A DNA stretch of 64,000 nucleotides from Clostridia bacterium (lineage in GTDB: Bacteria; Bacillota; Clostridia; Christensenellales; Aristaeellaceae), in contig JAGBDL010000162.1 of assembly GCA_017937505.1 (NCBI GenBank), positions 29 through 64,028 of the forward strand, given 5' to 3'. How positions within the stretch are numbered: position 1 is the first letter of the stretch; each line of letters begins with the position of its first letter. The notes beneath the pieces were generated by a model. That model was not told the DNA's origin and searched no databases. It saw only the letters and a program-made list of their open reading frames with translations. This document shows, piece after piece, positions 21,421-38,109 of this stretch. The position numbers and the translations under genes were made by a program.

Positions 21421-22242
21421 TTGCAACCAACCATTCTATCTATCGCAAACCAGAAGGGCGGAGTCGGCAAGACAACCACCTGCACCAACCTGGGCTTCGG
21501 ACTTGCGCAGGAGGGCAAGCGTGTGCTGCTGGTGGACGCAGATCCGCAGGCCAGTCTGACCATCAGCCTCGGCTGGCCCCAGCCGGACGCGCTGCCCGTC
21601 ACGCTGTCCACGCTCATGGGCCGCGCGCTCATGGACGAGCCAATCCGCGCGGAGGAAGCGATACTCCACCACGCGGAGGGCGTGGACGTGCTGCCCGCCA
21701 GCATCGAGCTGTCCGGCATGGAGGTGTCCCTCGTGAACGCCATGAGCCGGGAAACCGTGCTGCGGCAGGTGCTGGACGGCGTAAAGCGGCAGTACAGCCA
21801 TATCCTCATCGACTGTATGCCCTCGCTGGGGATGCTTACCGTCAATGCGCTTGCCGCATCGAACAGGGTGCTCATTCCCGTGCAGGCGCAGTACCTGTCT
21901 GCCAAGGGTCTGGAACAGCTCCTGCAGACCGTTTCCAAGGTGCACAGGCAGCTCAACCCGAAGCTCGCCATCGACGGCATCCTGCTGACGATGGTGGACA
22001 GCCGCACCAACTATGCCCGTGAGATCAGCGCCCTGCTGCGCGAGACCTACGGGAGCAAAATCAGGGTGTTCGCCACCGACATCCCGCACTCTGTCCGCGC
22101 GGCGGAGATCAGCGCGGAGGGCAAGAGCATCTTTGCGCACGACCCGAAGGGCAAGGTGGCAGAGGCATACCGTGCGTTGACGAAGGAGGTGATGCGCATT
22201 GAAAAGCAGCGCGAAAAACATCAGGCTGACCTCGGTCGATGA
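21421..22242 (+). CDS. parA: ParA/Soj family partition ATPase
   Basis: ILSIANQKGGVGKTTT deviant Walker A, LLVDADPQAS, ILIDCMPSLG. The start is TTG. Confidence 0.9.
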   Translation: MQPTILSIANQKGGVGKTTTCTNLGFGLAQEGKRVLLVDADPQASLTISLGWPQPDALPVTLSTLMGRALMDEPIRAEEAILHHAEGVDVLPASIELSGMEVSLVNAMSRETVLRQVLDGVKRQYSHILIDCMPSLGMLTVNALAASNRVLIPVQAQYLSAKGLEQLLQTVSKVHRQLNPKLAIDGILLTMVDSRTNYAREISALLRETYGSKIRVFATDIPHSVRAAEISAEGKSIFAHDPKGKVAEAYRALTKEVMRIEKQREKHQADLGR

Positions 22243-23128
22243 CCTGTTCTCCACCGAGGAGAGCCGCGCGGATGAGCAGCGCGAGAAGGTGCAGGAGATT
22301 CCCCTCGCGGAGCTGCATCCCTTTCCCAATCATCCGTTCAAGGTCGTGGACGACGAGCGCATGCTTGACACTGCAGACAGTATCCGCGAGCATGGCGTGC
22401 TCGTCCCGGCGATTGCCCGTCCGCGTGCGGACGGCGGCTATGAGCTGATTGCCGGACACCGGCGCAAGCGCGGCTGCGAGCTGGCAGGGCTTGACACCAT
22501 GCCGGTTATCGTCCGCAATCTTGACGACGATGCCTCGACGATCATTATGGTGGATTCGAATATTCAGCGCGAAAGCCTGCTCCCCAGCGAGCGGGCTTTT
22601 GCATATAAAATGAAGCTGGAAGCCATCAAACGGCAAGGTGCGAGAACAGATCTAACTTCTGGACAAGTTGTCCAGAAGTCACGTCTGTCCGTAGAAATCG
22701 TAGCAGATCAAGCGGGCGAAAACTACAAACAGGTTCAACGCTACATCCGTCTCACCGAACTCGTTCCAGACCTGCTCGACATGGTTGACACGAAGAAAAT
22801 CGCGTTCAACCCCGCTGTTGAGCTGTCCTACCTGAAGCCGGAAGAGCAGACAGCGCTGATGGAGGCGATGGACAGCGAACAGGCCACGCCGTCGCTCTCG
22901 CAGGCGCAGCGCCTCAAACGCTTCAGTCAGGAGGGCACGCTGTCGCCCGACATGATGCGCGCCATTCTCTCCGAGGAGAAGAAGGCCGACATGGACAGGG
23001 TGACGCTTACCGGCGACACCTTGCGCAAGTATTTCCCCAAGTCGTACACGCCCCGTCAGATGGAGCAGACCATCCTCAAGCTGCTGGAAGGCTGGCACCG
23101 CCGCCGCCAGCAGTCGCAGGAACGATAA
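22199..23128 (+). CDS. parB: ParB/Spo0J-like partition protein (ParB N-terminal nuclease-like domain)
   Basis: IPLAELHPFPNHPFKV, GVLVPAIARP, YELIAGHRRKRGCE. Confidence 0.9.
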   Translation: MKSSAKNIRLTSVDDLFSTEESRADEQREKVQEIPLAELHPFPNHPFKVVDDERMLDTADSIREHGVLVPAIARPRADGGYELIAGHRRKRGCELAGLDTMPVIVRNLDDDASTIIMVDSNIQRESLLPSERAFAYKMKLEAIKRQGARTDLTSGQVVQKSRLSVEIVADQAGENYKQVQRYIRLTELVPDLLDMVDTKKIAFNPAVELSYLKPEEQTALMEAMDSEQATPSLSQAQRLKRFSQEGTLSPDMMRAILSEEKKADMDRVTLTGDTLRKYFPKSYTPRQMEQTILKLLEGWHRRRQQSQER

Positions 23129-23183
23129 CCCGCCGCACGCGAAGACCGTGCGGCTGTTTGTTTTTGGAAAGAAGGTTGAGACT

Positions 23184-24107
23184 ATGGCGATTTTTCGCGT
23201 AGCCAAGACGCGGGACTACACCGTAATGAGCAATTACCACCTCCGGGACAAGAACCTCTCCCTCAAGGCCAAGGGGCTGCTGTCCCTCATCCTGTCCTTA
23301 CCGGAGGACTGGAACTACACGACGCGTGGATTGGCTGCCATCTGCAAGGAGGGCGTGGACAGCATCGGCGCTGCTCTGCGCGAGATGGAGAGCGCCGGGT
23401 ATCTCACCCGCCATCGCCTGCGCGACAGGAGCGGGCGCATCTCGGATACGGAGTATGTCGTCTATGAGAGTCCGCGCACAGAAACGGAAGCGGATTCGCC
23501 GGATAAGGTTTCGCAGGGCACGGACGAACCGGATACGGCTTCGCCGTGTACGGAAAATCCGTATATGGTTTTCCCGGATATGGCAACGCCGCAAACGGAT
23601 GCGCCGGATACGGAAAAGCCTGCGCAATTAAGTACTGAGGTATCCAATACGTATGAATCAAATACCCAAAAATCAAATCCTGATCCAATCATAGTCCAAA
23701 AACAAAGGGCTCAGCAAGCCGATACTGGCATGAGCGATATGGATCAGATGGATGCAAGGGAGTACCGGAAAACGTTCGCCGAAGTTAAGGAGCAGATCGA
23801 ATATGACGCACTGGATACGCCGCACGACCATGAACGTCTGGGCGAAATCGTGGAGATCATGACGGAGACGCTGTGCAGCCGCAAGCCGTATATCAAGGTC
23901 GCCGGAGAGAATTACCCCGCCGAGGTGGTCAAGAGCCGGTTCAAAAAGCTGAGCTATCATCACATCGAGTACGTCTTTCTGAGCCTCGATAAGAAGCATA
24001 CCGAGGTGCGCAATATCCGGCAGTACCTGATGACGACGCTCTATCATGCGCCAACGACGATGAGCAATTACTACGACGCGGAGGTGCGAAGCGCAGGGAT
24101 TTTGTAA
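23184..24107 (+). CDS. winged-helix replication-initiator-like protein of conjugative/mobilisable elements
   Basis: MAIFRVAKTRDYTVMSNYHLRDKNLSLKAKGLLSLILSLPEDWNYT is the conserved N-terminus of this element-borne family. The central low-complexity PD-repeat region follows. Confidence 0.7.
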   Translation: MAIFRVAKTRDYTVMSNYHLRDKNLSLKAKGLLSLILSLPEDWNYTTRGLAAICKEGVDSIGAALREMESAGYLTRHRLRDRSGRISDTEYVVYESPRTETEADSPDKVSQGTDEPDTASPCTENPYMVFPDMATPQTDAPDTEKPAQLSTEVSNTYESNTQKSNPDPIIVQKQRAQQADTGMSDMDQMDAREYRKTFAEVKEQIEYDALDTPHDHERLGEIVEIMTETLCSRKPYIKVAGENYPAEVVKSRFKKLSYHHIEYVFLSLDKKHTEVRNIRQYLMTTLYHAPTTMSNYYDAEVRSAGIL

Positions 24108-26679: not shown

Positions 26680-26708
26680 TTGACTTTTGATCTCAATCCA
26701 GCTATTAT
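26680..26708 (+). promoter_or_regulatory. candidate sigma-A promoter of the MTase-HIT-TM-ATPgrasp/MazG operon
   Basis: TTGACT (26680-26685), a 17-nt spacer, then TATTAT (26703-26708). RBS gggagg precedes ATG 26757. Confidence 0.5.
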
Positions 26709-26756
26709 TACTGTAAAATAGGATTTGTATATACAAAATGGGAGGCTGATTATTGG

Positions 26757-27650
26757 ATGAGTAATTACTCCCCTCTTCGGTATCCGGGAGGAAAATCGGC
26801 ATTGTATCCTGTTATTTCCAGCGTGATAGAATCCAATAGAATGAAGCACTGCATATATGTCGAACCTTTTGCTGGCGGTGCAGGCATTGCATGGAGTTTG
26901 CTGATTGATGGCGTAGTAGATCGTGTGATTATTAATGATGCAGATAAAGCTGTATATTCATTTTGGCGAGCTATTGTGGAATCTACGCAATGGTTTGTTG
27001 AGAAGATCAGGACAACGCCGATAACGGTCGATGAATGGCGAAAACAAAGGGATATTCTCCGAAAGTCAAAGAAGTACAGCAAAGAATTGGGTTTTGCAAT
27101 GTTCTTTTTAAATAGAACTAACCGATCAGGCATTTTGGATGCTGGTCCCATAGGCGGTTATGATCAGGCAGGAGAGTATAAAATTGATTGCCGCTTTAAC
27201 AGAGATGAATTAATCGGGAAAATTATAAAGATTTCTGAATACCGGAACAACATCAGAATATACAATCAAGATATTTCGACATTCTTGAAACGGTTTTTGC
27301 CTCAAGGAAACGAAAACAATGAGATATTTGTGTACTTTGATCCACCCTATTATGAAAAGGGTCAGCGATTATACATGAATTCTTTTTCGAGTAAAGACCA
27401 TGAGAGATTAAGGGATTCGGTTGCCCTTCTTGATTGCAGGTGGATCATGACATACGACGACAAGTCTGAGATTGAAGAGCTGTACGAGAGTTATCAGAAG
27501 TGTCGCTTTTCAATCAATTATAGTCTGTCGAATAAAAGAAAAGGTGGAGAACTGATGATTTATAAAGACACATCGTGTATTCCATCTTCTGAGGTTATTT
27601 CAAAATTATCTAAATCAGTTACTTTTGGTAATATTTGTTTGGAGGGATAG
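26757..27650 (+). CDS. D12-class (Dam-like, alpha group) N6-adenine DNA methyltransferase
   Basis: PLRYPGGKSAL, EPFAGGAGIA (motif I), NRTNRSGI, FVYFDPPYY (motif IV). Confidence 0.9.
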   Translation: MSNYSPLRYPGGKSALYPVISSVIESNRMKHCIYVEPFAGGAGIAWSLLIDGVVDRVIINDADKAVYSFWRAIVESTQWFVEKIRTTPITVDEWRKQRDILRKSKKYSKELGFAMFFLNRTNRSGILDAGPIGGYDQAGEYKIDCRFNRDELIGKIIKISEYRNNIRIYNQDISTFLKRFLPQGNENNEIFVYFDPPYYEKGQRLYMNSFSSKDHERLRDSVALLDCRWIMTYDDKSEIEELYESYQKCRFSINYSLSNKRKGGELMIYKDTSCIPSSEVISKLSKSVTFGNICLEG

Positions 27651-27653
27651 AAA

Positions 27654-28280
27654 GTGGATAACTGTAGATTTTGTGGCATAGCTAACGGAAGTATGGATAC
27701 GCAAAAACCTGAAAACGTGAAGATTGCAGAGAGCGAAAAGTTTTTTGCCATTTCCTCGGTTGGTGCGTTGGTGGAAGGTTGGACACTCATTGTGCCCAAA
27801 CACCACTGCTGCTCTATGAAGAACTTATATACCGAAGAAGAGTTTTCTACATTTTCGAATCAACTTGTAAGCATATTGACTGCTTGCTATGGCCCCGTCA
27901 TTGCTTTTGAGCATGGTCCCAACCGTGAAGGCTCTGATACTTCTTGCGGAACTGACCACGCACATATTCATATCGTGCCATATCGTTCTTTGATGGCAAA
28001 ACTTGATGATATGGAAATGGAATGGCAGACATGTAGTGCGTCCCAAGTGTGTGAACTTGTTGGTAGAAATGAGTACCTGTTTTATTGTGAACCGGGTACA
28101 AAATGGGACAATCCGACCGGTCGGGTACATGTTTTGAAAGAGCCCATATCTCAGTTTTTTAGGAAGGTTATTGCTGAAGATTTGGGCGCGCCTGACAAAT
28201 TCAACTATAAAACTAACCCCGATACAACGCTTACGCTGAAAACCATTGAAAGGGTAAGATACTATTGTGCTAAGCATTGA
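27654..28280 (+). CDS. HIT-family nucleotide hydrolase/transferase
   Basis: N-terminal CRFCGI, and the histidine triad GTDHAHIHIVPY. GTG start lies 3 nt after the MTase stop. Confidence 0.85.
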   Translation: MDNCRFCGIANGSMDTQKPENVKIAESEKFFAISSVGALVEGWTLIVPKHHCCSMKNLYTEEEFSTFSNQLVSILTACYGPVIAFEHGPNREGSDTSCGTDHAHIHIVPYRSLMAKLDDMEMEWQTCSASQVCELVGRNEYLFYCEPGTKWDNPTGRVHVLKEPISQFFRKVIAEDLGAPDKFNYKTNPDTTLTLKTIERVRYYCAKH

Positions 28281-28291
28281 GAGGTTTAGAA

Positions 28292-28885
28292 ATGACAGAG
28301 AACAAAACCAATACAAAAGAAGAAGCAGCGGAAGTGACTAAAAGCGCCTCTGTACCGGATGCTATTGAAACAAAGGTAAATACTGATGGCCGAAAGCCCT
28401 ATGAGTGGCAATCAAAATACCCTAAAGAGGCACGAAACGAAATGCTGTGGGAAGCTATATATATTGGTGCAGTTTTGGTCGTGTCCTTTTTGGGATTATT
28501 TCTTAATTGGAGCGGAGTATTCAGTTGCTTTCTGAAAGTAGATCCAACAAGAGTGATTGCCTTCGAAGGAATTTTGCTATATTTCCTTTCTGGCTTGATG
28601 GGAGGCACTATCTTTGGGATAAAATACTTTTATAGAGTCGTAGCACGAGGGTATTGGACACAGGATAGGAAATACTGGAGAGTTTTTTCTCCATGGATTT
28701 CTGCATGTGTGGCTTTGGTTGTTGGGTGCATGATTGTTTCTGGTTACATTAACGCGACTCAGACTCCATCTACTGCGACTGGGGTTTGCGTAGGCTTCAT
28801 TTCTGGTTATTTTGCAGATGAAGCAGTTGGCAAAATGTCTGAAGTAGCAACAGCTCTGTTTGGCTCCAGTAGTAAAGTAAAATGA
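28292..28885 (+). CDS. 4-TM membrane protein, unknown function
   Basis: Hydrophobic helices AIYIGAVLVVSFLGLFLNW, GILLYFLSGLMGGTIFGI, ISACVALVVGCMIVSGY, GVCVGFISGYF. ATG follows gagagg. Confidence 0.7.
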   Translation: MTENKTNTKEEAAEVTKSASVPDAIETKVNTDGRKPYEWQSKYPKEARNEMLWEAIYIGAVLVVSFLGLFLNWSGVFSCFLKVDPTRVIAFEGILLYFLSGLMGGTIFGIKYFYRVVARGYWTQDRKYWRVFSPWISACVALVVGCMIVSGYINATQTPSTATGVCVGFISGYFADEAVGKMSEVATALFGSSSKVK

Positions 28886-28892
28886 GGTGCTT

Positions 28893-31436
28893 ATGATGGC
28901 ACATGTATCTGCACTAAAGCCTATTAGTCCTATGATCTGGGTTACACAGTCAGGTTTTGAGATTATTAATTCTGAGCAGGTTACAATTAGTCGTGTGGGA
29001 GAAAAAGCTTTTGGATTAGCTTCCTTGCCTCCCCAATGGACTCTTCCTTATTTTGTAATCTCGGACAAACTATTTGATGACTATGTCGAAAACCGTGATA
29101 TTGAGAGTGTAGCATCAAAATGGGCTAAAGGAGTAAATGCTGCAGCAGCAAGCTGCACAATATCATCCGACGATCAGATTATTGTGAGATCTAATGCTCA
29201 TTCTGAAGGATTGGCAGAGCGTGGTAAATTTATTTCTGTAGAGGGAACATTTCAAGAGTGGCCTAAATTGGTCAAACAGTGTTTTGATGACTCGTTAGAG
29301 CAGGATGATTCGGGAAATGTCCACATGCCGGTGATTATTCAAAAAAGAGTGACAGCATTGTCTCGTGGACATATTTCAAATGAACGACGTGTAGCCGAGG
29401 AAAATCGTGATTGGAAGGGCGAGATTGAGGGGGCAATTCCAAGGGTATTCTCTGTTTCATTGCGCAGCTGGCGCAAAAAAGTGAAAGTCGATGGTTATAT
29501 TGATTCACCGCTAATGTGCCCTGGAGATAAGGTAATTAGGGATGTATTGTCCATTCCGTGCACATGGGCCACGAATCAACGAATCCGTGTGCATTTCGAG
29601 TGGATATATGACGGTTATTACATTTATCTAGTTCAGGCTGACGAAGAGACAGTGGCTGATGGCATCAATCCAATGAAAGGTGTACATAACACATTGGCTG
29701 CAAAAGAATCTGCTGATACAGGATTTCCTTATTGCGTGCATCCGTTGAAAGCAGAAGATGCAGAGCGATATAAGAAATATGCAAAGATTCAGAATCCGCT
29801 ACTATATCATCGTATAGAACAGCGCACTGCTCCACTTTATATTTTGGACGATGTGGAAACCCTTGAGGCATTGACAAAGAATACAATAACAGCTGGATTA
29901 GAAAAGGATTTACGCATTCTTACATCTCACTCCCTCATTATTCGAACCGATATTGCTACCGACAATAAAGAGGAACGACAACTACTACCGCGAACCAATG
30001 GTATTAAAGATGTAGAAGCAGCTAAGAAGTGGTTATGTGAGAGTTATGCTGAGTTATTGAAACAACCAGGCCAAAAGCCGATTTTTATAATGCATAACTA
30101 CATACCCGCTTTCTCCTCGGCTTTTGCCTATGCGAGTCCAGGCGATAAATTGGTTCGAATAGAAGCATTGTGGGGATTACCTGAAGGCCTGTATTATTAT
30201 AGTCACGATAAACATGTGGTGGATACAAAGCATGCAGATGCCGGAAAAATGGCTCAAAAAGAGTTTGAGGTACAATCGCATCGAAACTACAAGAAATACT
30301 TTGTTTTTCCGATGGAAGACGAGAAATGGGAAGTACAAAGTCTGGCAAATCCCTATGATTGGAGATCTGCTATTCCGAAGGAAGATTGGATAAAAGAAAT
30401 TGCGTATGTTACACGTCGGATTTCTGAAGAAGAAGGAAAAAGTGTCAGTGTAATGTGGTTTGTCGGTGTAGATGATACAACCTACGGATGCAATGTATTT
30501 CCGTGGTATCATGAACCGTTTGAGTATAACGAAGAGCAGACTACGCCACGCAATAAGCTTTCATTCGAAAGGACTCTTGCTATCCACACATTAAAGGACC
30601 TTGAACAATTGGAGAAGCTGGCAACGAAGCCCAATGCAAGTATTAGGAACATTCAGATTCAGCCGACGGATGCCAATATTTTGAGAGATCGGTCTATCAT
30701 TGACAGAATCGGAAATGCTGCGAAAGATCTAGGCGCAAACATTTTACTGGAGGGCGGAATCCTCTCACATGCGTATTACCAGTTGGTTCGTACAGGCGCA
30801 AAGGTTGAAGTTAGACATGCTTTTGAGAAAAAGCAAAGTTTGGAGTTTAACAAGCTAGTAAGAGATAAGATTCCTGAAAAAATACAGTGTAACGGTGAGG
30901 AAGCTGTAACCGCCCAACTAGATAAAAGTATATTGAATCGGCTACTGAAACGTAAATTGGTTGAGGAGGCGTTAGAAGTCCTCGATTCAAAAGAGGAAGA
31001 TAATCTTGTTGTGGAACTTGCAGATATTCTAGAAGTTCTTGACGGAATTCTTGGGCAGCATCAGATTGATATTCAAACAGTCTTACAGCAAAAGCAAAAG
31101 AAGCGTGAAAAAGTGGGTGGATTCGAAAAGGGTGTCTATCTGAAAACGACCTCCAGCCGTGCTATCTCAAGTAAAGGAAAAATTGTTATTGATAGCAACC
31201 CTGTAGACACAAAGCAAAAGGTGTCAAAGTCAACGGATCTGCGCAAGTATTCGACTGCTAATGAATCTTTAACACGAATCAAAGTTCCCGTCACTTTGGA
31301 TAAATGGGAAATTCGTCCAAGTGTCAGAGCAAAGAATATTGATATCGTTCTTAGAGGTGAACGTAAACAAGGAATTTGGCAAATTGAAATCTCTGTTTTC
31401 GAAAAAGCAGAGCAAATGTCGTTCTTCGACATGTAA
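28893..31436 (+). CDS. large fusion protein: PEP/pyruvate-binding (PPDK_N-like) ATP-grasp region + MazG-like all-alpha NTP pyrophosphohydrolase + unknown C-terminal domain
   Basis: ATP-grasp-like motifs VGEKAFGLASL...PYFVIS, IIVRSNAHSEGLAERGKF, MPVIIQKRV, EALWGLPEGLYYY. MazG-like block FNKLVRDKIPEKI...LVEEALEVL...VELADILEVLDGI (ExxE...ExxD). The start lies 8 nt after the TM gene stop. Confidence 0.65.
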   Translation: MMAHVSALKPISPMIWVTQSGFEIINSEQVTISRVGEKAFGLASLPPQWTLPYFVISDKLFDDYVENRDIESVASKWAKGVNAAAASCTISSDDQIIVRSNAHSEGLAERGKFISVEGTFQEWPKLVKQCFDDSLEQDDSGNVHMPVIIQKRVTALSRGHISNERRVAEENRDWKGEIEGAIPRVFSVSLRSWRKKVKVDGYIDSPLMCPGDKVIRDVLSIPCTWATNQRIRVHFEWIYDGYYIYLVQADEETVADGINPMKGVHNTLAAKESADTGFPYCVHPLKAEDAERYKKYAKIQNPLLYHRIEQRTAPLYILDDVETLEALTKNTITAGLEKDLRILTSHSLIIRTDIATDNKEERQLLPRTNGIKDVEAAKKWLCESYAELLKQPGQKPIFIMHNYIPAFSSAFAYASPGDKLVRIEALWGLPEGLYYYSHDKHVVDTKHADAGKMAQKEFEVQSHRNYKKYFVFPMEDEKWEVQSLANPYDWRSAIPKEDWIKEIAYVTRRISEEEGKSVSVMWFVGVDDTTYGCNVFPWYHEPFEYNEEQTTPRNKLSFERTLAIHTLKDLEQLEKLATKPNASIRNIQIQPTDANILRDRSIIDRIGNAAKDLGANILLEGGILSHAYYQLVRTGAKVEVRHAFEKKQSLEFNKLVRDKIPEKIQCNGEEAVTAQLDKSILNRLLKRKLVEEALEVLDSKEEDNLVVELADILEVLDGILGQHQIDIQTVLQQKQKKREKVGGFEKGVYLKTTSSRAISSKGKIVIDSNPVDTKQKVSKSTDLRKYSTANESLTRIKVPVTLDKWEIRPSVRAKNIDIVLRGERKQGIWQIEISVFEKAEQMSFFDM

Positions 31437-32312: not shown

Positions 32313-34604
32313 TTGAGCCACCGGAAACAGCCCACTATAATAGTCTCAGACTATATAGGGGGGCGAACAAAGGTGGTTATTACAGTGGAGATTTACAAAC
32401 AGATTCGCAAGATGCGGCTGGACGGCATGAGTCAGAGGCAGATCGCAGCAACGCTCCACATCTCCTGCAATACTGTCAAGAAATACTGGGACGGTAACAG
32501 CGTCCCCTGGGAGAGGAAGGACTACTCCAGGGACGCCTCCGTACTTACTGAGGATGTGGTAGCATTTGTCAGACAGTGTCTGGATGAGGATAGCCAGTGT
32601 AGATCCAAGAAGCAGCATCACACCGCCAAACGTATCTACGACCGGCTGGTAGCCGAATGCGGCTTCACCGGCGGCGAGACAACCGTCCGGCGACTGTTGA
32701 AAGAACTTCGCGAGAAGAGCCAGGCGACATTTGTTCCGCTTATCTTTCCGGCAGGAGATGCCCTGCAGATTGACTGGGGTGAGGTATCCGTCTACTTGAG
32801 TGGCGTCAAAACTACCGTCAACCTCTTCTGCGCGCGACTGTGCTACAGAGGTGCTCCCATGGCTCTGGCATACCGCAGACAGAATGAGGAGAGCTTCCTG
32901 GATGCGCTGGTTCAGGTATTTCAATATTTCGGCGGAGTCCCCAAACGGGTCATCTTTGACAACGGCAAGGTCGCCGTCAAGGACGGCTTCGGCGCCCACG
33001 CCCGGAAGCAGGCGGGTTATGCTGCTCTGGCCGCTCACTACGGTTTTGAAGCGGTATTCTGCAATCCGACTTCCGGCAACGAAAAGGGTTTGGTAGAAGG
33101 TCTGGTGGGCTATATTCGCCGCAATGTCTGCGTTCCGGTTCCCAAAGTGGAAACCATGGAAGATCTGAACCGGATGCTCCTGGAAAAGTGCCTGAACTAC
33201 CTGTCCCACCAAGTTCGCGGCAAAGAATCCTCTGTGGGTGAGATGCTCAAAAAGGAGCGAGAAAAGCTGTACCCTCTGCCCGGCTATCCCTTTGACCCAT
33301 GTAAGCGCGCCACCGGCCGGGTGGACAGGTTCTGTACTGTCCGCTTTGATACGAATAACTACTCTGTTCCTGCTGTGTACTGCGGAAGAGAGGTATCTCT
33401 TAAAGCCGGTCCCGAAACGGTCACCATCTATTTTGAGGGGCAGTGTATTGCCCAGCACCGGCGGTGTCTGGATAGAAAACAGAACATCTACAAGCTGGAA
33501 CATTACCTTCCCTTGCTGGAGAAGAAAGGCAGAGCTATCTTCTACGCCAGACCGGTACAGGAAACCCTGCCTGACTACTTCCTGAATTGGCTGCAGAAGC
33601 AGGATTTGTCCCCAAAAGAACTGGTTGAGATTCTGATCCGTTGTCGGGAGGAAGACTGCGATGTCATTATGACCGAGGCACCCCAACACGCCGCTCCTGT
33701 CCAAATTGAGGATACTGTTGTCGTGCAAGCAGTAGACCTGCATACCTTCTGCGCACATGAACATCCTGAATGCAGCGAACTGACAGAGTGGTTGATTCTC
33801 GAATGGCTGAGACCGGTCATGAAGAAGGAACCCGCTGTCATTCACCAGCACATCTGCTTTATGAACGGATTTGCCCGGTATCTGAACAATGTGGGAAAAC
33901 CGGCATTCATGATGCACAACAGGTTCGCCTGCGGCCGGACACTATTCGTTCCTTATATCTTCTCGGACGATGATTTGACTCGCCTCTTTCATGTCATTGA
34001 CACAAACGGAAAGCATGGAAACCCGTTTCAGCGGATTCAGTTCAGCGTGTATTACAGGCTGATCTACACATGTGGATTGCGCCCAAACGAAGGACGCACG
34101 CTCAGAAAAAAGCATGTGGATCTCCATGCCGGCGAGATTGTCATTGAATGCTCCAAAGAACGCAGAAGCAGAATCGTCGTGATGTCGGATGACATGAGGG
34201 CGCTGGCAGCCAGATACAGCAGCCTGCTGAACGCATGCTTTCCGGATACGGAATTCTTTTTCCCCTCAAAGCATGGCCGGGAGTATCCGGCGACTTTCTT
34301 CCAGACAAACCTTGTCCGCTTCTTTGCCGAGGCCAATCCTGCCATTCCTGCAGACTTCCTGCCTCGTGTGCGCGTCTATGATCTTCGTCACCGCTTTGCC
34401 ACAGCAGCCATTCACCGCTGGCTTGAGCAGGGAAAGCCGGTTGATACCATGCTGCCTTATCTCCAGATGTACATGGGGCACGCAAGGCTTTCTTCTACCG
34501 CGTACTATATCCATCTTTTGCCGGAGCATCTGGTCAAAGCAAGCGGCATGAACTGGGAAGAAATTGGTGACATCCTTCCGGGGGTAGAGCTATGGCAAGA
34601 CTGA
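32313..34604 (+). CDS. chimeric ORF: IS21 IstA transposase (about aa 1-487) fused in frame to the C-terminal catalytic part of a tyrosine recombinase
   Basis: IstA part: VEIYKQIRKMRLDGMSQRQIA (HTH), IDWGEV, FDNGK...NEKGLVE (DDE). After ...VQAVDLHTF come recombinase motifs: GLRPNEGRTL, VYDLRHRFAT, MGHARLSSTAYYIHL. Confidence 0.7.
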   Translation: MSHRKQPTIIVSDYIGGRTKVVITVEIYKQIRKMRLDGMSQRQIAATLHISCNTVKKYWDGNSVPWERKDYSRDASVLTEDVVAFVRQCLDEDSQCRSKKQHHTAKRIYDRLVAECGFTGGETTVRRLLKELREKSQATFVPLIFPAGDALQIDWGEVSVYLSGVKTTVNLFCARLCYRGAPMALAYRRQNEESFLDALVQVFQYFGGVPKRVIFDNGKVAVKDGFGAHARKQAGYAALAAHYGFEAVFCNPTSGNEKGLVEGLVGYIRRNVCVPVPKVETMEDLNRMLLEKCLNYLSHQVRGKESSVGEMLKKEREKLYPLPGYPFDPCKRATGRVDRFCTVRFDTNNYSVPAVYCGREVSLKAGPETVTIYFEGQCIAQHRRCLDRKQNIYKLEHYLPLLEKKGRAIFYARPVQETLPDYFLNWLQKQDLSPKELVEILIRCREEDCDVIMTEAPQHAAPVQIEDTVVVQAVDLHTFCAHEHPECSELTEWLILEWLRPVMKKEPAVIHQHICFMNGFARYLNNVGKPAFMMHNRFACGRTLFVPYIFSDDDLTRLFHVIDTNGKHGNPFQRIQFSVYYRLIYTCGLRPNEGRTLRKKHVDLHAGEIVIECSKERRSRIVVMSDDMRALAARYSSLLNACFPDTEFFFPSKHGREYPATFFQTNLVRFFAEANPAIPADFLPRVRVYDLRHRFATAAIHRWLEQGKPVDTMLPYLQMYMGHARLSSTAYYIHLLPEHLVKASGMNWEEIGDILPGVELWQD

Positions 34605-35662
34605 AGAAGCCGGTGGACGAACGCCTGTTCATGCTGATTAAGAACTGGCTTGGCGTATATCTTCCGACAGAGCGCAAGGCCAGTCCATGCACCATTGCAA
34701 ATTACAGACAGGCGCTGAACCAGTTCCTCACCTATCTGGCAGATAGGAACGGAACAAAACTGGCTGCTGTCACATTTGATATGATGAATGCGGATTCGCT
34801 CAATGATTATCTGAATCATCTGCAAACAGAGCAAAACTGCACTCGTGCCACAAGAAACAACCGGCTTGCCGCCTTGCGGGCATTCATTTCCTACGCTTCG
34901 GCCTGCAGTCCGGAATACGTTGCAACAGCGTTGGATGTAGCCAGAATCAAGACACAGAAGGATGATCCGTTTTCCAAGGTGGAATACCTGACTGAAAACG
35001 CAGCCAGGGCCATCCTTGCAGCACCCGATGTGTCCACTGCCAAAGGCCGCAGAGACCAGACCATGCTCACCGTCCTGTATGACACCGGCGCCCGGATTAG
35101 CGAGCTGCTGGAGCTGCATCTTTCTGATCTGCGGCTCAGCACAACAACTCCGACTGCAACACTTCTCGGCAAAGGCGGTGTCGTCCGCACGGTTCCTCTG
35201 GCAAAAGAAACCGTGTCCATGCTGTACAGGTACCTGGCGGAGTTTCACCCGGATGAGCTGTTGACATCCTGCGCGCTGCTGTTCTTTACCAGCCACAGGA
35301 ACGGCCGGCAGAAGATGTGCGCGCAAACCGTGCGGGCATGGATGGACAAATACAGAGAGTCTGCCCGGTTGAAATGCCCGGAAGTGCCGGAACATATTCA
35401 TCCTCATATGTGGCGGCATACCCGGGCGATGCATCTGTACCAGCATGGCATGCCGCTGGAACTTGTAGCACAGTGGCTTGGTCACAGGAATCCAACCACA
35501 ACGCTCGTTTATGCTTATGCGGATACAGAGCACAAGCGCAAGGCCATTGAAAAGGCCATGGAACACAGCCAGGTGACAACGGGATTATCCGCCGGTTCCA
35601 GGCAGCCGGCATACCAGATTACCGATGAGGAGCTGCTGAAGCGTCTGTATGGGCTTGATTAA
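34592..35662 (+). CDS. tyrosine recombinase/integrase (XerD-like)
   Basis: N-terminal SAM-like domain (ANYRQALNQFLTYL), GARISELLEL, HPHMWRHTRAMHL, LGHRNPTTTLVYAY. Overlaps the upstream ORF by 13 nt. Confidence 0.85.
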   Translation: MARLKKPVDERLFMLIKNWLGVYLPTERKASPCTIANYRQALNQFLTYLADRNGTKLAAVTFDMMNADSLNDYLNHLQTEQNCTRATRNNRLAALRAFISYASACSPEYVATALDVARIKTQKDDPFSKVEYLTENAARAILAAPDVSTAKGRRDQTMLTVLYDTGARISELLELHLSDLRLSTTTPTATLLGKGGVVRTVPLAKETVSMLYRYLAEFHPDELLTSCALLFFTSHRNGRQKMCAQTVRAWMDKYRESARLKCPEVPEHIHPHMWRHTRAMHLYQHGMPLELVAQWLGHRNPTTTLVYAYADTEHKRKAIEKAMEHSQVTTGLSAGSRQPAYQITDEELLKRLYGLD

Positions 35663-35904: not shown

Positions 35905-36561
35905 TTACCGGTGCAATTGCTCAAGAAATGTGATGGCTTCATTCACGGTAGAAAAGGTTTTGCATTGCTTACACAGCCATTGGTTTCTTTCATCTGTGTC
36001 TTCCAGTCCGGGCAGACCATCCGAAAGAAGGTTACACAGTATCTTTTCTGCATGTTCCACTGCGATAGGATAACGCTCCGCTATGCGTGCAGTTGCTTCA
36101 TAATCTCCTTTGACATAGGAGGCTTCTCTTGCAACAACCTCTGCAAGTATTCTCTCCTTGTCTGCAACCTCCAGCACCGGCGGCGAAAACATTTTGTAGT
36201 GGAGCATCAGCCAATACTCGATACAACCTGTGGTCATGAGCAGGCGAACTCTGATATTCGGATTCCTTCTGAGCCTTCGAAGCCTCTTGATCATCGCCAG
36301 CCGCTGCTCCCATTTCCCGATGTCCTTTGTCTCCACATCAAAGAAAAACCATATCTCATCTGTGACCTCTGCGTAATCCCGGAACTTTGGATCTTTCTGA
36401 AAGCGCCTGTCCGCTTCTTCAAACAATCCGGTTGCAGATGGACGCTTTATGACGGCAACATTTGCAAACCTCTGCTTCAAAAAGTCGGTATATGCCTGCT
36501 CGCTCTCTCCTTCACAGAAGACAAAGATCAGCGGCTTGGCGTGTTTGATCCGGCGGGGCAT
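35905..36561 (-). CDS. RloB-like protein (AbiLii-like)
   Basis: PLIFVFCEGESEQAYTDFL and EIWFFFDVE match the RloB/Toprim-like pattern. Its start overlaps the stop of the upstream ATPase gene. Confidence 0.75.
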   Translation of the reverse strand: MPRRIKHAKPLIFVFCEGESEQAYTDFLKQRFANVAVIKRPSATGLFEEADRRFQKDPKFRDYAEVTDEIWFFFDVETKDIGKWEQRLAMIKRLRRLRRNPNIRVRLLMTTGCIEYWLMLHYKMFSPPVLEVADKERILAEVVAREASYVKGDYEATARIAERYPIAVEHAEKILCNLLSDGLPGLEDTDERNQWLCKQCKTFSTVNEAITFLEQLHR

Positions 36562-37859
36562 TATTCCACCTCCTCAATTTCAATGTTGGGGGTGGCACCG
36601 TATTTACCAAGCAGATAGCCTTTCCGAATATTCTCAGTTGTCCGAGTTGAAAAGTCGCTGATGCTGTACAATTCAGACGCGCCGTCTTCCTGATCCTTAT
36701 CTACAAAATACAGCTGGTCTTTTCGGAGCAGTTCCATGTTCAGCAGCTCCGTGTTATGCGTGGTGAAAATCATCTGCGCACCGAATGGATTTGTTCTTTT
36801 GCTTTGGAACTTCGATACAATGAAGCTTACCAGCAGAGGATGAAGTTCCCGCTCAATCTCATCCACCAGCAAAACGCCGCCATTGGCCAATACAGACTCA
36901 ATCGCCGGTGCTATTGACATGAGTTTTCTGGTGCCGTCAGATTCGTCTTCCAGCTCAAGCGAATAGAGCTGTCTGCTTCCATCCTGATTCCGGCCTTTAT
37001 GCTTGGAAGTCGCCTTGACCTCGCCCATCTTGAGATGAACCTCGGAGTTATTGGATGTTTCGGAAAGCGCCTGCCTAAACTGCATCAATGCAGCCCTGAC
37101 CCCTTCGGGGATTTCATCCGGAAAGGCGGTGCTATCCTGAATTTCCTGGCTGTTGATTTCAAACTGCATTTCCTCAATACCCAGATCAGCAGCCTTGGCA
37201 TAATCGGAAATGGCTTTCAGCATGTTGGTATCGCTGGAGTAGTCAAGAAGCTGACGCGGGATATCGGAATAGTCCCTGGAGAAGAACACCTTTTCTCTGA
37301 ACCATCTCATCGCGCGGGAACAATCTGCATCATTCATGGTGCAGGCAACGGAGAAGAATAGCTGGTTTTCAGCAACAGCTCCCTTGATGAGCTCCCGTCT
37401 CGCTTTATCCTTGCTGAACTCAAAATCCTGTCCTGACCTTGAGAACACCAATGCTTTCTGTCCCTTGGGCGCATGGTACAGTGACTCTGCAAATACTTTT
37501 TCCCTGGTTGCAGAAAAAGAGTACCAGTATCTGACGTCGTCCAGTGTATAGTAGAATTCAAATTCAGTAGGCTCTGACGCCGAATAGTCATTGAGGGCAA
37601 AGGGAACGACAGGAATAGCAGCCTTTTCGTGCTGCGTCCGCTGCGCGTTTCTGATGAATTGAACTGCGAGCCAGAACGCCCGTATCACATTGCTCTTGCC
37701 GCCGCCGTTCTTGCCAAAAATCGCAGCCCCCGGCAGAAGAGTGATGCTATGAAATGGAATGAGAATGCTCTTTAAGGCTCCCAGACCTGTTGCTTCCATG
37801 GAGAGAACGGCATCATCTCGAAACGATCTGTAATTCCTGAAGCGAAATTCGATGAGCAT
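36561..37859 (-). CDS. AAA_21-type ABC-like ATPase (AbiLi/RloA-like)
   Basis: MLIEFRFRNYRSF, GKNGGGKSNVIRAF (Walker A), LLVDEIERELHP (Walker B), IFTTHN. ATG 37859 is preceded by ggaggtg. Confidence 0.8.
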   Translation of the reverse strand: MLIEFRFRNYRSFRDDAVLSMEATGLGALKSILIPFHSITLLPGAAIFGKNGGGKSNVIRAFWLAVQFIRNAQRTQHEKAAIPVVPFALNDYSASEPTEFEFYYTLDDVRYWYSFSATREKVFAESLYHAPKGQKALVFSRSGQDFEFSKDKARRELIKGAVAENQLFFSVACTMNDADCSRAMRWFREKVFFSRDYSDIPRQLLDYSSDTNMLKAISDYAKAADLGIEEMQFEINSQEIQDSTAFPDEIPEGVRAALMQFRQALSETSNNSEVHLKMGEVKATSKHKGRNQDGSRQLYSLELEDESDGTRKLMSIAPAIESVLANGGVLLVDEIERELHPLLVSFIVSKFQSKRTNPFGAQMIFTTHNTELLNMELLRKDQLYFVDKDQEDGASELYSISDFSTRTTENIRKGYLLGKYGATPNIEIEEVE

Positions 37860-38109
37860 AGAAACACCTCCGCTACCAGTATAATCACTGGTCGAGAAAA
37901 ATACAATTGGAAAAATCAAAAAAATTGATAATTCTTCTTCGATTTTATCCGAATCCATGCGGGCCTGAGTCTTTATTTGATTTCAATGTAGTTTTCCCGA
38001 AACACTCATATAGCGAATTGGTGAATTCTGTGTTGCGGAGAAGCATCCTTGCATTTCTCGTGGGCTTGGGTCACAATAGAAGCAGACAATTCGAGCAGGA
38101 GGGATTCTT

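Follow-up and report, generated by a model that had tools for sequence, protein, structure and literature searches.

The gene at 28893-31436 is read here as encoding the large catalytic subunit of a conserved and mobile cassette of a Dam-type methylase, an HIT protein, a four-transmembrane (4-TM) protein and the enzyme itself, which is defence-like in character and in which nucleotides would be processed by dikinase-type chemistry through a swivelling histidine. We give this reading a probability of about 0.5. The window, that is, the whole stretch of DNA analysed, is 64,000 nucleotides long, and in it the enzyme gene closes an operon of four closely spaced genes:

26680..26708, + strand: promoter-like site TTGACT-17-TATTAT, from a consensus scan only, ca 50 nt 5' of the methylase ATG
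26757..27650, + strand: Dam-family (D12 class) N6-adenine DNA methyltransferase, first cassette gene (Pfam, PADLOC)
27654..28280, + strand: HIT-superfamily protein, 208 aa (Pfam, PDB, conservation)
28277..28885, + strand: small membrane protein with four hydrophobic segments (translation, conservation)
28893-31436, + strand: the enzyme, 847 aa, or 846 aa if the start is ATG 28896

The enzyme reading frame spans 28887/28893-31436 on the + strand, which bears out the 847-residue frame given in an earlier note made from the sequence alone, and a ribosome-binding site, GAGGTG, lies directly 5' of the ATG codons at 28893 and 28896. An identical database protein has 846 residues, in agreement with a start at 28896. 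Along the protein, the domains come in the following order:

28980..29669, + strand: PPDK_N-type ATP-grasp module 1, residues 30-259 (hhalign, ATP/Mg motifs intact)
29778..30527, + strand: PPDK_N-type ATP-grasp module 2, residues 296-545 (hhalign, Pfam on the relative P0260)
30558..30827, + strand: putative swivelling phospho-histidine domain, small alpha/beta, with GGILSHA and His626, residues 556-645 (motif, linkers)
30843..31142, + strand: MazG/PRA-PH-type all-alpha NTP pyrophosphohydrolase unit, residues 651-750 (Pfam, identity, Foldseek)
31218..31412, + strand: orphan, family-specific beta-domain of five strands, residues ca 776-840 (AF2 secondary structure)

This architecture and the invariant catalytic residues in it are observed, unlike the chemical steps discussed further below. 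Invariance in the family was scored over 166 relatives (163 for K38), and a model of the whole enzyme (AF2, pLDDT 79.9) was compared by Foldseek. The family comprises 667 clusters (50% identity level) at E < 1e-30, carries no database name other than 'NTP pyrophosphohydrolase', and has members in Burkholderia cenocepacia, Nitrosomonas ureae, Acinetobacter and abundant human-gut Clostridia; a tblastn search of phage genomes gave no homologue. For the intact window protein, Pfam, NCBIfam and PADLOC return only weak PRA-PH/MazG matches, with PPDK_N and PEP-utilizers not found, and neither the single sequence nor a 42-sequence profile found a match among the sequences of the PDB.

The N-terminal part of the enzyme consists of two complete tandem PPDK_N-type ATP-grasp modules, and not, as the earlier note had it, of one ATP-grasp in two lobes separated by an insertion of about 250 residues. 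Aligned by hhalign to genuine PPDK_N domains, module 1 reaches a probability of 98.2% (E 2.9e-14, 228 columns, positions 14-320 of 325) and module 2 (296-528/545) one of 95.1% (E 3.4e-8, 221 columns). It is important to point out that the duplication is visible only when each half is compared with the genuine PPDK_N profile using the 166-sequence family profile. When the N-terminal and the second half were compared directly by hhalign, on the basis of the 42-sequence alignment, no repeat emerged, and alignments to the single E. coli sequences PpsA, PtsI and FryA place the motifs in a way that looks correct, with probabilities that are meaningless. The motifs of module 1 (GEK38, VR99S, IIQ150K, HFE236W and LVQ248AD250) are all invariant or nearly so in the 166 sequences, R99, E105, E236 and Q248 being present in 166/166 and K38 in 163/163. 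Module 2 retains K298, R351 and the WGLPEG loop; at the place of the DIEW glutamate, a Mg ligand, it has an invariant Met521, and the conserved motif is lost there. Its probable role is that of a non-canonical module for binding a nucleotide or an acceptor.

Rifampin phosphotransferase 5hv2 is the first Foldseek match of the model (E 1.9e-9), followed by HpeI 9goj (1.4e-8), the RPH ATP-binding domain 5hv6 (3e-7) and PPDK 2x0s/1kbl (ca 2e-3), while the ligase-type ATP-grasps Ddl and PurK come at ca 2e-3 and weaker. Two relatives, P0239 and P0260, reach Pfam PPDK_N (PF01326) in part, which the window protein does not, and the region of P0260 equivalent to module 2 scores 27.8 bits (cut-off 27). 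The ATP-grasp/PPDK_N fold that had been proposed for the N-terminal region, and that profile or structure comparison could have overturned, is thus upheld for the first ca 545 residues by Foldseek, by hhalign and by Pfam in two relatives.

The earlier note saw no His-swivel motif in the protein. This is probably wrong, as the segment G621-G622-I-L-S625-H626-A627 fits the published dikinase swivel motif, GG-x-x-x-H (PMC12167813), with the same spacing and residue types and a serine before the histidine, and G621, L624 and H626, as well as R598, are invariant in 166/166 relatives. The position of the regulatory threonine is occupied by the hydrophobic Leu624, and a T/S eight residues upstream of His626 is absent. 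An identical heptad, GGILSHA, occurs inside a verified Pfam PEP-utilizers (PF00391) domain of an HpeH-like Bacillus thuringiensis protein. Low-pLDDT linkers at 551-558 and 647-676 border the 90-residue domain, and every characterised PPDK_N enzyme operates via a swivel-type histidine (PMC12167813).

Profile and fold comparisons were also made for this region. PEP-utilizers went undetected there by Pfam (also in the relatives), by PDB sequence search and by Foldseek, and a separate model of residues 556-847, compared with PDB and BFVD, gave MazG-like matches only and none for the His domain. The best hhalign match of the enzyme to swivel profiles is the His626 region, weakly, with P from 1e-3 to 4e-2: 0.03 for a profile of 116 PpsA/EI swivel domains, 1e-3 to 3e-3 for RPH-type swivels, and 0.014 for the merged profile. 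Membership of PF00391 was not called, the hhalign signal being consistent but never significant. Residues 556-645 are therefore described as a putative swivelling phospho-histidine domain on the strength of the motif and not of the fold.

These results bear on the model of the earlier note, in which a swivel-less ATP-grasp ligase joined to MazG makes or destroys a modified nucleotide via an acyl-phosphate, with no phospho-histidine. The weak fold-level case for the swivel, and the fact that neither Pfam nor Foldseek recognises a PEP-utilizers domain, speak for such an enzyme. However, the two ATP-grasp modules are specifically members of the PPDK_N subfamily, the structural similarity to ligase-type ATP-grasps is far weaker, and the invariant GGxLSH between flexible linkers would be left unexplained, which makes this model quite improbable. 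The enzyme should instead be read as a dikinase-type phosphotransferase (ATP to AMP via His~PP), because the candidate phospho-histidine swivel domain, with GGILSHA and the invariant His626, is present.

The central block had been called MazG/PRA-PH-like, and profile and structure comparison confirm this at about residues 651-750. The isolated segment of residues 640-760 matches Pfam PRA-PH with 22.6 bits (cut-off 21.3), the same family matches 42/42 relatives, and the identity to stand-alone NTP pyrophosphohydrolases of ca 100 aa is about 40% along the entire unit. Foldseek pairs the unit with 1vmg, 1y6x and 5ie9 at a probability of 0.96–0.97, but with E of ca 0.3, and in BFVD a 93-aa protein of phage RaK2 resembles it (TM 0.86). 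Its signature is KLVRDKIP ... EExxE ... ExxD ... KReKxGGF, so that the four-helix unit has the metal-binding acidic residues, EExxE...ExxD, of PRA-PH (PF01503) and MazG (PF03819); all 166 relatives share K654, R657, D658, E691, E692, E695, E708 and D711. The NTP pyrophosphohydrolase is predicted from its sequence to be catalytically intact.

A disordered linker (746-774) precedes the C-terminal beta-domain, the least conserved part of the enzyme, with partial conservation in the wider family. The domain has no match in Pfam, PDB or BFVD. A profile search with it returned 14 short fragments. None of them has a Pfam domain, most are 69–94% identical to the tail of the window protein itself, and no other full-length architecture appeared among the matches. 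The last ca 70–100 residues, which had been noted as an orphan, keep this status after the Pfam, Foldseek/PDB, BFVD and profile searches.

As to the partner genes, the site at 26680..26708 is likely the operon promoter, as predicted from its agreement with the consensus, and a ribosome-binding site for the methylase, GGGAGG, is found at 26740-26745. The methylase matches Pfam MethyltransfD12 (8.8e-22) and, in PADLOC, PD-Lambda-5_B (5.3e-115) and MTase_II (3.8e-88). The neighbouring HIT gene of which the earlier note spoke is real: its product matches Pfam CwfJ_C_1 (8.2e-6, 26.1 bits, cut-off 21) and HIT (8.6e-4), and in the PDB the Hint-type proteins 3ksv (5.9e-6) and 1y23 (2e-4). It has an N-terminal CxxC, a histidine triad, HAHIHIV, of the H-x-H-x-H-x-x form of the HIT superfamily, and a conserved C-terminal extension of ca 90 aa. 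Over 65 orthologues, H104 and H106 are conserved to 100% and H102 to 95%.

The membrane protein probably starts at ATG 28292, and the stop of its gene lies within the ribosome-binding site of the enzyme gene. Its four hydrophobic segments are read as transmembrane helices, judged by eye from the translation. No family match above threshold was obtained in Pfam, NCBIfam or PADLOC, and 26 positions are conserved to at least 90% in 63 orthologues, including an invariant loop, WxxDRxxWRxxxP (W127, D130, R131, W134, R135 and P139). Its gene always lies between the HIT and enzyme genes.

The search for homologues and their gene neighbours proposed in the earlier note shows HIT, TM protein and enzyme to be colinear in 70/73 loci, from more than 15 phyla. 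Such an arrangement could suit abortive infection of the CBASS/Pycsar type, in which the enzyme would make a nucleotide-derived messenger or a toxic nucleotide on sensing infection, the 4-TM protein would disrupt the membrane, and the HIT protein would degrade the messenger and so prevent autoimmunity. In its favour are the strict colinearity and close spacing of the three genes, and a 4-TM partner that occurs universally and whose invariant charged loop, on the cytoplasmic side, resembles a ligand or partner site; HIT enzymes, moreover, hydrolyse unusual nucleotides. We nevertheless find this explanation unlikely, as dikinases are not known as messenger makers, a cyclase/CD-NTase-like domain is absent, known effector families give no match to the TM protein, and the methylase is left without a role.

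A Dam-type methylase is found within a few kb of the enzyme in 62/73 loci, in five different arrangements, and in one locus (L004) it is fused to HIT. Eight of the 73 loci have none nearby, among them a Caulobacter plasmid on which an annotated class I SAM methyltransferase replaces it, and self-marking is for this reason not essential. Neither a nuclease nor any other classical effector domain turned up in the cassette, and searches of HIT, 4-TM and enzyme against Pfam, NCBIfam, PADLOC, PDB and BFVD revealed no restriction nuclease beside the methylase. The cognate nuclease that adjoins the methylase in classical restriction-modification is thus missing, though a methylase is present.

Another option considered was R-M-like targeting of DNA, where His~P or His~PP would be delivered to DNA instead of a free nucleotide, for instance to phosphorylate or otherwise modify DNA that enters unmethylated, the beta-domain would read methylation, the methylase would protect self, and HIT, following an aprataxin-like logic, would reverse accidental adducts. 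It would explain why the methylase is linked to the enzyme so often (62/73) and yet is free in position and orientation and drawn from several MTase subfamilies, like swapped R-M specificity modules; the different annotated methyltransferase of Caulobacter, the MTase-HIT fusion, and the resemblance of the cassette MTase to that of PD-lambda-5, a compact RM+Abi system in the words of its authors, also fit. However, DNA-binding, nuclease and methyl-reader domains are undetected by Pfam, PADLOC and Foldseek against PDB and BFVD, the eight loci do without a nearby Dam-type methylase, MazG and ATP-grasp folds bind mononucleotides, and the supposed reader is the least conserved part of the enzyme. 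We consider DNA targeting to have a small chance of being correct.

The cassette is inserted in a mobile element, is low in GC and has moved horizontally. Its GC content is ca 41% against 52–65% in the flanks, the surrounding element bears ParA, ParB and integrases, and AbiLi/AbiLii lie 4.5 kb away. Elsewhere, the cassette directly follows Druantia DruD/DruE, adjoins type I HsdR/HsdS, is found as Tn7-like cargo, or lies near integrase, TA or Fic genes; some loci are surrounded by housekeeping genes. This setting, a mobile Dam-MTase/HIT/4TM/enzyme cassette in defence islands, had escaped the earlier note. In PADLOC-DB v2.0.0 (2023), the enzyme, HIT and TM proteins have no family match at E <= 1, and the methylase alone matches. 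Membership of PD-lambda-5 was accordingly rejected, only the methylase matching, and the MazG-containing DefensePredictor systems have a different architecture (MazG + MazG-C + NMAD/UDG). A literature search, combining ATP-grasp, dikinase, RPH or HIT with MazG or anti-phage defence, gave no description of the architecture or of the system.

While synteny, mobility and the defence-island context are observed directly, the defence role is inferred through guilt by association. The cassette, whose neighbours are often genes of known anti-phage systems, appears to behave as a module for defence against phages or plasmids, and makes a strong candidate for a novel form of bacterial immunity. We have also considered a non-immune role, in which a small-molecule dikinase would serve resistance or catabolism like RPH or HpeHI, with the membrane protein as transporter or anchor and the methylase as passenger. 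The closest structural relatives phosphorylate antibiotics or phenolics (PMC12167813), and some loci do lie amid housekeeping genes. Nucleotides are indicated, however, by the MazG unit, which is fused and invariant, and by the obligate HIT partner. The methylase is linked in 85% of loci and once fused to HIT, and the cassette recurs by AbiL, by Druantia, by type I R-M and as cargo of a Tn7-like element, with a patchy distribution across phyla. A non-immune dikinase of this kind is hence rather improbable.

For the preferred reading, dikinase-type nucleotide processing, a mechanism can be modelled on PPDK, PEP synthase, rifampin phosphotransferase and HpeHI, all of its chemical steps being inferred by analogy. 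Module 1 would bind Mg-ATP and transfer the beta,gamma-pyrophosphoryl group to His626, with release of AMP, upon which the His domain would swing to a second site made by module 2 and/or the MazG domain. Because module 2 and the MazG domain are both nucleotide-binding folds, a nucleotide is the most likely acceptor. The MazG site would convert NTP to NMP and PPi, and thereby supply or remove the partner nucleotide, and in sum a nucleotide species would be converted or depleted during infection at the expense of ATP. The HIT partner would hydrolyse or transfer a nucleoside-phosphoramidate or dinucleotide by-product, the 4-TM protein would be a membrane tether for the complex or an effector, and the methylase, where present, would mark self DNA. 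That one enzyme both uses ATP and cleaves NTP pyrophosphate, acting on nucleotides together with an HIT protein, is a reasonable proposal. On the other hand, a small molecule may be the acceptor substrate, as it is for RPH and HpeHI.

One can speculate further, and more tentatively, that HIT-4TM-enzyme, usually with the methylase, constitutes an unrecognised class of immune system, in which a swivelling histidine would carry out phospho- or pyrophospho-transfer onto a nucleotide or invading DNA, and MazG and HIT would process P-N or pyrophosphate-linked intermediates at the membrane. To our knowledge, the dikinase family has so far been confined to central metabolism, antibiotic inactivation and phenol catabolism. 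If true, this would be the first PPDK/RPH-type dikinase chemistry in anti-phage defence, would extend the family into nucleotide-based conflict systems, and would add another case to the growing theme of immunity via manipulation of the nucleotide pool. A family of at least several hundred clusters from most bacterial phyla would then be mislabelled as 'NTP pyrophosphohydrolase', and would stand at the centre of a new mobile module of the defence type whose enzymology has no precedent. Even if the role is not in immunity, the tandem PPDK_N, His and MazG relay would be a new enzyme architecture.

Among known defence systems, BREX, DISARM and PD-lambda-5, which are linked to a methylase and have no classical restriction nuclease, likewise combine an N6-adenine methylase with non-nuclease enzymes in a mobile cassette in defence islands, but PglZ, BrxC, DrmA, PD-Lambda-5_A etc. 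are absent here, and some loci of the present cassette lack the methylase. With RPH and the small-molecule dikinases HpeHI/PpsAB/CreHI, its top Foldseek matches, the enzyme shares the PPDK_N-type ATP-grasp and the spacing of the GG-x-[hydrophobic]-S-H-A motif, and the conversion of ATP to AMP via a pyrophospho- or phospho-histidine on a mobile domain would be expected for it too. It differs from RPH and HpeHI in having a tandem ATP-grasp, no RIF- or phenol-binding helical domain, and a shorter putative His domain followed by the MazG unit and the orphan beta-domain; where they have resistance or catabolic genes as neighbours, it has HIT, 4TM and a DNA methylase. PEP synthase and PPDK have the same order of ATP-grasp, His domain and acceptor-site domain, and module 1 retains their VGGK, VRSS, VQxM and DIEW...Q motifs. 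In the enzyme, however, the MazG four-helix unit takes the position of the PEP-utilizers_C TIM barrel, the regulatory threonine is replaced by Leu624, and the gene is patchy, mobile and low in GC, not core metabolic. Finally, the stand-alone MazG/PRA-PH proteins (1vmg, 1y6x and 5ie9), which bear the annotation 'nucleoside triphosphate pyrophosphohydrolase', share with the enzyme unit the KLVRDKIP start, EExxE...ExxD and the KRxKxGGF end. In contrast to them, the unit is a domain inside a protein of 847 aa and comes directly after the putative His domain. It may for this reason act in a phosphotransfer relay, as its acceptor or nucleotide site, and not as a free house-cleaning enzyme.

Judged by its sequence, the enzyme encoded by the last gene of the following cassette has an architecture that is new to the dikinase family.

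26680-26708: promoter-like site
26757-27650, + strand: Dam-type methylase (Pfam MethyltransfD12, 8.8e-22; PADLOC PD-Lambda-5_B, 5e-115)
27654-28280, + strand: HIT protein
28277/28292-28885, + strand: four-TM protein
28893-31436, + strand: the enzyme

The genes are closely spaced and each has its own ribosome-binding site. For the TM gene, the mechanical ORF start (TTG 28277) overlaps the HIT stop; the true start looks like ATG 28292, after GAGAGG, which gives a 197-aa protein. The enzyme ORF starts at 28887 (GTG) or 28893 (ATG) and ends at 31436. Two ATGs, 28893 and 28896, are located directly 3' of the ribosome-binding site GAGGTG, and a database protein identical to the enzyme has 846 aa, in agreement with ATG 28896; residue numbers follow the 847-aa version throughout. 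The ORF closes a low-GC block, with ca 40-43% GC at 26-32 kb compared to 52-65% in the remaining window.

For the first 545 residues, Pfam gives no PPDK_N match on the window protein itself. An AlphaFold2 model of the enzyme, built from a 42-sequence alignment (mean pLDDT 79.9), was compared with the PDB using Foldseek. The best ranks were found to be dikinases, namely rifampin phosphotransferase 5hv2 (E 1.9e-9) and HpeI 9goj (1.4e-8), followed by the isolated RPH ATP-binding domain 5hv6 (3e-7) and PPDK (ca 2e-3). Partial Pfam PPDK_N matches occur in two distant relatives, on different halves: residues 27-130 of P0239 correspond to PPDK_N positions 3-116, and residues 395-488 of P0260 to positions 197-293 (27.8 bits, cut-off 27).

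We have also compared the 166-sequence profile of the enzyme family with a PPDK_N alignment (hhalign). The reference consisted of plasmid dikinases (Listeria RPH-like, Bacillus and Rhodococcus HpeHI-like pairs, proteins from Rubrobacter, Halogeometricum and Streptomyces), E. coli PpsA, and a PPDK_N protein encoded upstream of the enzyme in a Desulfovibrio locus (L013); the Pfam check of the reference dikinases covered the Listeria RPH-like and B. thuringiensis HpeH-like proteins. Module 1 (residues 30-259) aligns to PPDK_N positions 14-320 of 325 with a probability of 98.2% (E 2.9e-14), and module 2 (residues 296-528) to positions 20-303 with a probability of 95.1% (E 3.4e-8). Since each of the two stretches aligns to PPDK_N, it is the whole ATP-grasp that is tandemly duplicated, and the two halves show an identical order of secondary-structure elements in the model. 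The Foldseek ranking and the profile comparison confirm thus the ATP-grasp/PPDK_N fold that the earlier note had proposed, but not its description of two lobes around a 250-aa insertion.

Module 1 retains the nucleotide/Mg motifs GEK38, VR99S, IIQ150K, HFE236W and LVQ248AD, with R99, E105, E236 and Q248 invariant (166/166). Module 2 retains K298, R351 and the WGLPEG loop, while an invariant Met521 occupies the position expected for the DIEW glutamate. We infer that module 2 is a non-canonical nucleotide- or acceptor-binding module.

We now consider the phospho-carrier. All characterised PPDK_N enzymes use a swivel histidine, found in the motif T/S-x-x-G-G-x-x-x-H; RPH and the phenol kinases have a hydrophobic residue instead of the regulatory Thr, with Ser or Cys in front of the His (PMC12167813). 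In the AlphaFold2 model, a small beta-alpha-beta domain (residues 556-645) stands between two low-confidence segments (551-558 and 647-676); its motif is L-E-G621-G622-I-L624-S625-H626-A-Y-Y-Q-L. R598, G621, L624 and H626 are invariant across 166 diverse relatives. The spacing and the residue types agree with the published RPH/phenol-kinase motif, although the upstream T/S is absent. A B. thuringiensis HpeH-like protein has the very same heptad, GGILSHA, within a Pfam PEP-utilizers domain (1.8e-23).

Comparison of the full 847-column profile with that of swivel domains paired residues 559-637 with swivel positions 26-86 as the best local match, which is colinear but has a P of only 0.037, and the isolated domain matches swivel profiles weakly (P 1e-3 to 1.4e-2). 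A swivel domain was detected neither by Pfam nor by Foldseek with a separate model of residues 556-847. A ligase without a swivel, the reading closest to these two negative searches, is quite improbable; ligase-type ATP-grasps are clearly weaker Foldseek matches to the enzyme model than the dikinases. In part because the characterised PPDK_N enzymes all use such a histidine, we favor, with a probability of roughly 0.7, a trimmed swivel domain at 556-645 with His626 as the phospho-carrier, the domain being a candidate rather than a demonstrated member of the swivel family. The invariant His626, in a heptad with the published spacing, indicates that the earlier statement that no such histidine is present is probably wrong.

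The MazG module (residues ca 651-750), scanned alone, scores 22.6 bits with Pfam PRA-PH (cut-off 21.3); the PRA-PH match is present in 42/42 aligned relatives and a MazG match in 29/42, in line with the original description of the central block as MazG-like. Over its whole length, the module is ca 40% identical to stand-alone 'nucleoside triphosphate pyrophosphohydrolases' of ca 100 aa (Bacillus, Halorussus, other plasmids). Its Foldseek matches are 1vmg, 1y6x and 5ie9 (probability 0.96-0.97) and, in BFVD, a 93-aa protein of phage RaK2 (TM 0.86). Because K654, R657, D658, E691, E692, E695, E708 and D711 are invariant (166/166), the site is predicted to be almost certainly active. Behind a disordered linker (746-774), about residues 776-840 are modelled as a beta-domain of five strands, the region of lowest conservation in the wider family. 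It has no match in Pfam, PDB or BFVD and is thus the orphan that it had been taken for. A profile search with it gave only 14 short fragments (65-152 aa), none with a Pfam domain; for 11, the identity to the tail of the window protein itself is 69-94%. That it acts as a sensor or in partner binding is only a guess.

A word-indexed search returned 366 relatives of the enzyme at E <= 1e-3, all between 840 and 910 aa long and 38-90% identical to it. When 1.84 billion cluster representatives were searched exhaustively with a profile, 667 matched at E < 1e-30. Where a source names them, they are called 'NTP pyrophosphohydrolase (MazG superfamily)'. A scan with one genome per species yielded 70 loci, the nearest being Agathobaculum among the Bacillota (81% identity). 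The family extends to Pseudomonadota (including Burkholderia cenocepacia, Nitrosomonas ureae, Acinetobacter and Achromobacter), Campylobacterota, Desulfobacterota, Nitrospirota, Planctomycetota, Bacteroidota, Acidobacteriota, Verrucomicrobiota, Elusimicrobia and Patescibacteria; no homologue was found in phage genomes by tblastn. A longer subfamily (P0166-P0216, 950-1024 aa) has ca 100-150 extra residues and matches the profile in two stretches; in the 166-sequence alignment, its members retain both His626 and the acidic residues of MazG, and they have no Pfam match of any kind.

Of the 73 loci with sufficient upstream sequence, 70 have HIT, TM and enzyme genes in colinear order (tblastn; some loci are mutual duplicates). 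A Dam-type methylase is found within a few kb of the enzyme in 62 of the 73; it is upstream on the same (34) or opposite strand (3), downstream on the opposite (14) or same strand (5), or between TM gene and enzyme (6), which makes five arrangements in all. The histidine triad of the HIT partner, which resembles Hint-type PDB proteins, is conserved (65 orthologues compared), and the TM partner has an invariant loop, WxxDRxxWRxxxP.

Several loci depart from this layout. L062, L063, L065, L066, L068, L019 and L021, several of them from Bacteroidota and Planctomycetota, have HIT-TM-enzyme only, with no Dam-type methylase within the available sequence; in the Bacteroidota cassettes among them, the N-terminal CxxC is apparently missing from the HIT protein. 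In L004 (5816-7336), the methylase and HIT form one 506-aa ORF that retains HAHIH; unless it is a sequencing artefact, which is possible, this fusion would be Rosetta-stone evidence for the two acting together. In a divergent cassette on the Caulobacter rhizosphaerae plasmid NZ_CP048816.1 (L082, 4741-10364; 27% identity), the Dam-type enzyme is replaced by a 618-aa protein that carries the annotation 'class I SAM-dependent methyltransferase', which Pfam does not confirm; a 713-aa GNAT-annotated protein with a weak PADLOC PDC-M11A match follows. The Desulfovibrio MAG locus L013 (3906-9613) is a variant with neither HIT nor Dam-type methylase. Two proteins are encoded upstream of the enzyme, one of 763 aa that has a PPDK_N domain of its own (Pfam 4.7e-15) and one of 223 aa without a Pfam match; type I HsdR and HsdS come after the enzyme, on the other strand.

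Around the cassette in the window are ParA, ParB, a DUF6017 protein, a transposase and two tyrosine recombinases. The presence of the ParA (AAA_31), ParB and HTH_36/DUF6017 genes (21421-24107) upstream of the low-GC block points to an integrative or plasmid-like element that comprises the entire region, in a Bacillota host of high GC. At 32313-35662 (+ strand), a 763-aa ORF joins an N-terminal half with domains of IS21/Mu-type transposases (rve, Mu-transpos_C_2) to a C-terminal half with Phage_integrase, and the second tyrosine recombinase follows with a few-base overlap; a mobile element of chimeric or nested make-up may stand here between the cassette and AbiL. The AbiLi/AbiLii pair, a complete AbiL-type abortive-infection set, is 4.5 kb downstream of the cassette (35905-37958, - strand), with AbiLi an AAA_21 ATPase of 465 aa (PADLOC 1.4e-89) and AbiLii RloB-like with 218 aa (PADLOC 1.7e-15; Pfam RloB 1.8e-14).

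In other genomes, the cassette is directly behind Druantia DruD/DruE (E = 0), adjoins type I HsdR/HsdS, is cargo of a Tn7-like TnsB/TniB/TniQ element, or has an integrase, TacA, Fic or PemK as a neighbor. At some loci it is simply inserted amid housekeeping genes; a small-molecule dikinase working outside immunity, to which such loci would be no surprise, is nevertheless improbable beside these defence neighbors. PADLOC v2 has no models for the enzyme, HIT or TM protein, and full-text searches aimed at the enzyme architecture found no description of it. DefensePredictor's predicted MazG systems are different from this cassette. The enzyme is the core of a defence-island-associated cassette that seems to be undescribed in the literature and that, from its neighbors, is a putative mobile module of the defence type. 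The initial observation was largely right in its ATP-grasp and MazG calls, if not in the split ATP-grasp and the absent swivel histidine, and the genomic setting makes its interpretation considerably more interesting.

Finally, by analogy with PPDK, PEPS, RPH and HpeHI (PMC12167813), module 1 would pyrophosphorylate His626 from ATP, with release of AMP, and the tethered His domain would take the phosphoryl group to a second site. Since module 2 and MazG are both nucleotide-binding folds, the acceptor would most likely be a nucleotide, and the MazG site may supply or remove NMP/NTP. DNA as the phosphoryl acceptor, in a scheme resembling restriction-modification, would give the frequent methylase a part, but is unlikely, with HIT-TM-enzyme standing alone in some loci. 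Nucleoside phosphoramidates and dinucleoside polyphosphates are substrates of HIT enzymes, so that the HIT partner could plausibly process an intermediate or by-product. The four-TM protein would be a membrane tether of the complex or an effector; that the enzyme synthesizes a messenger for which the TM protein is the effector would suit their constant pairing, and we regard it as unlikely too. The methylase, where present, would serve for self-marking. In PPDK and PEPS, the acceptor-site domain is located at the position that in the present enzyme is taken by the MazG unit.
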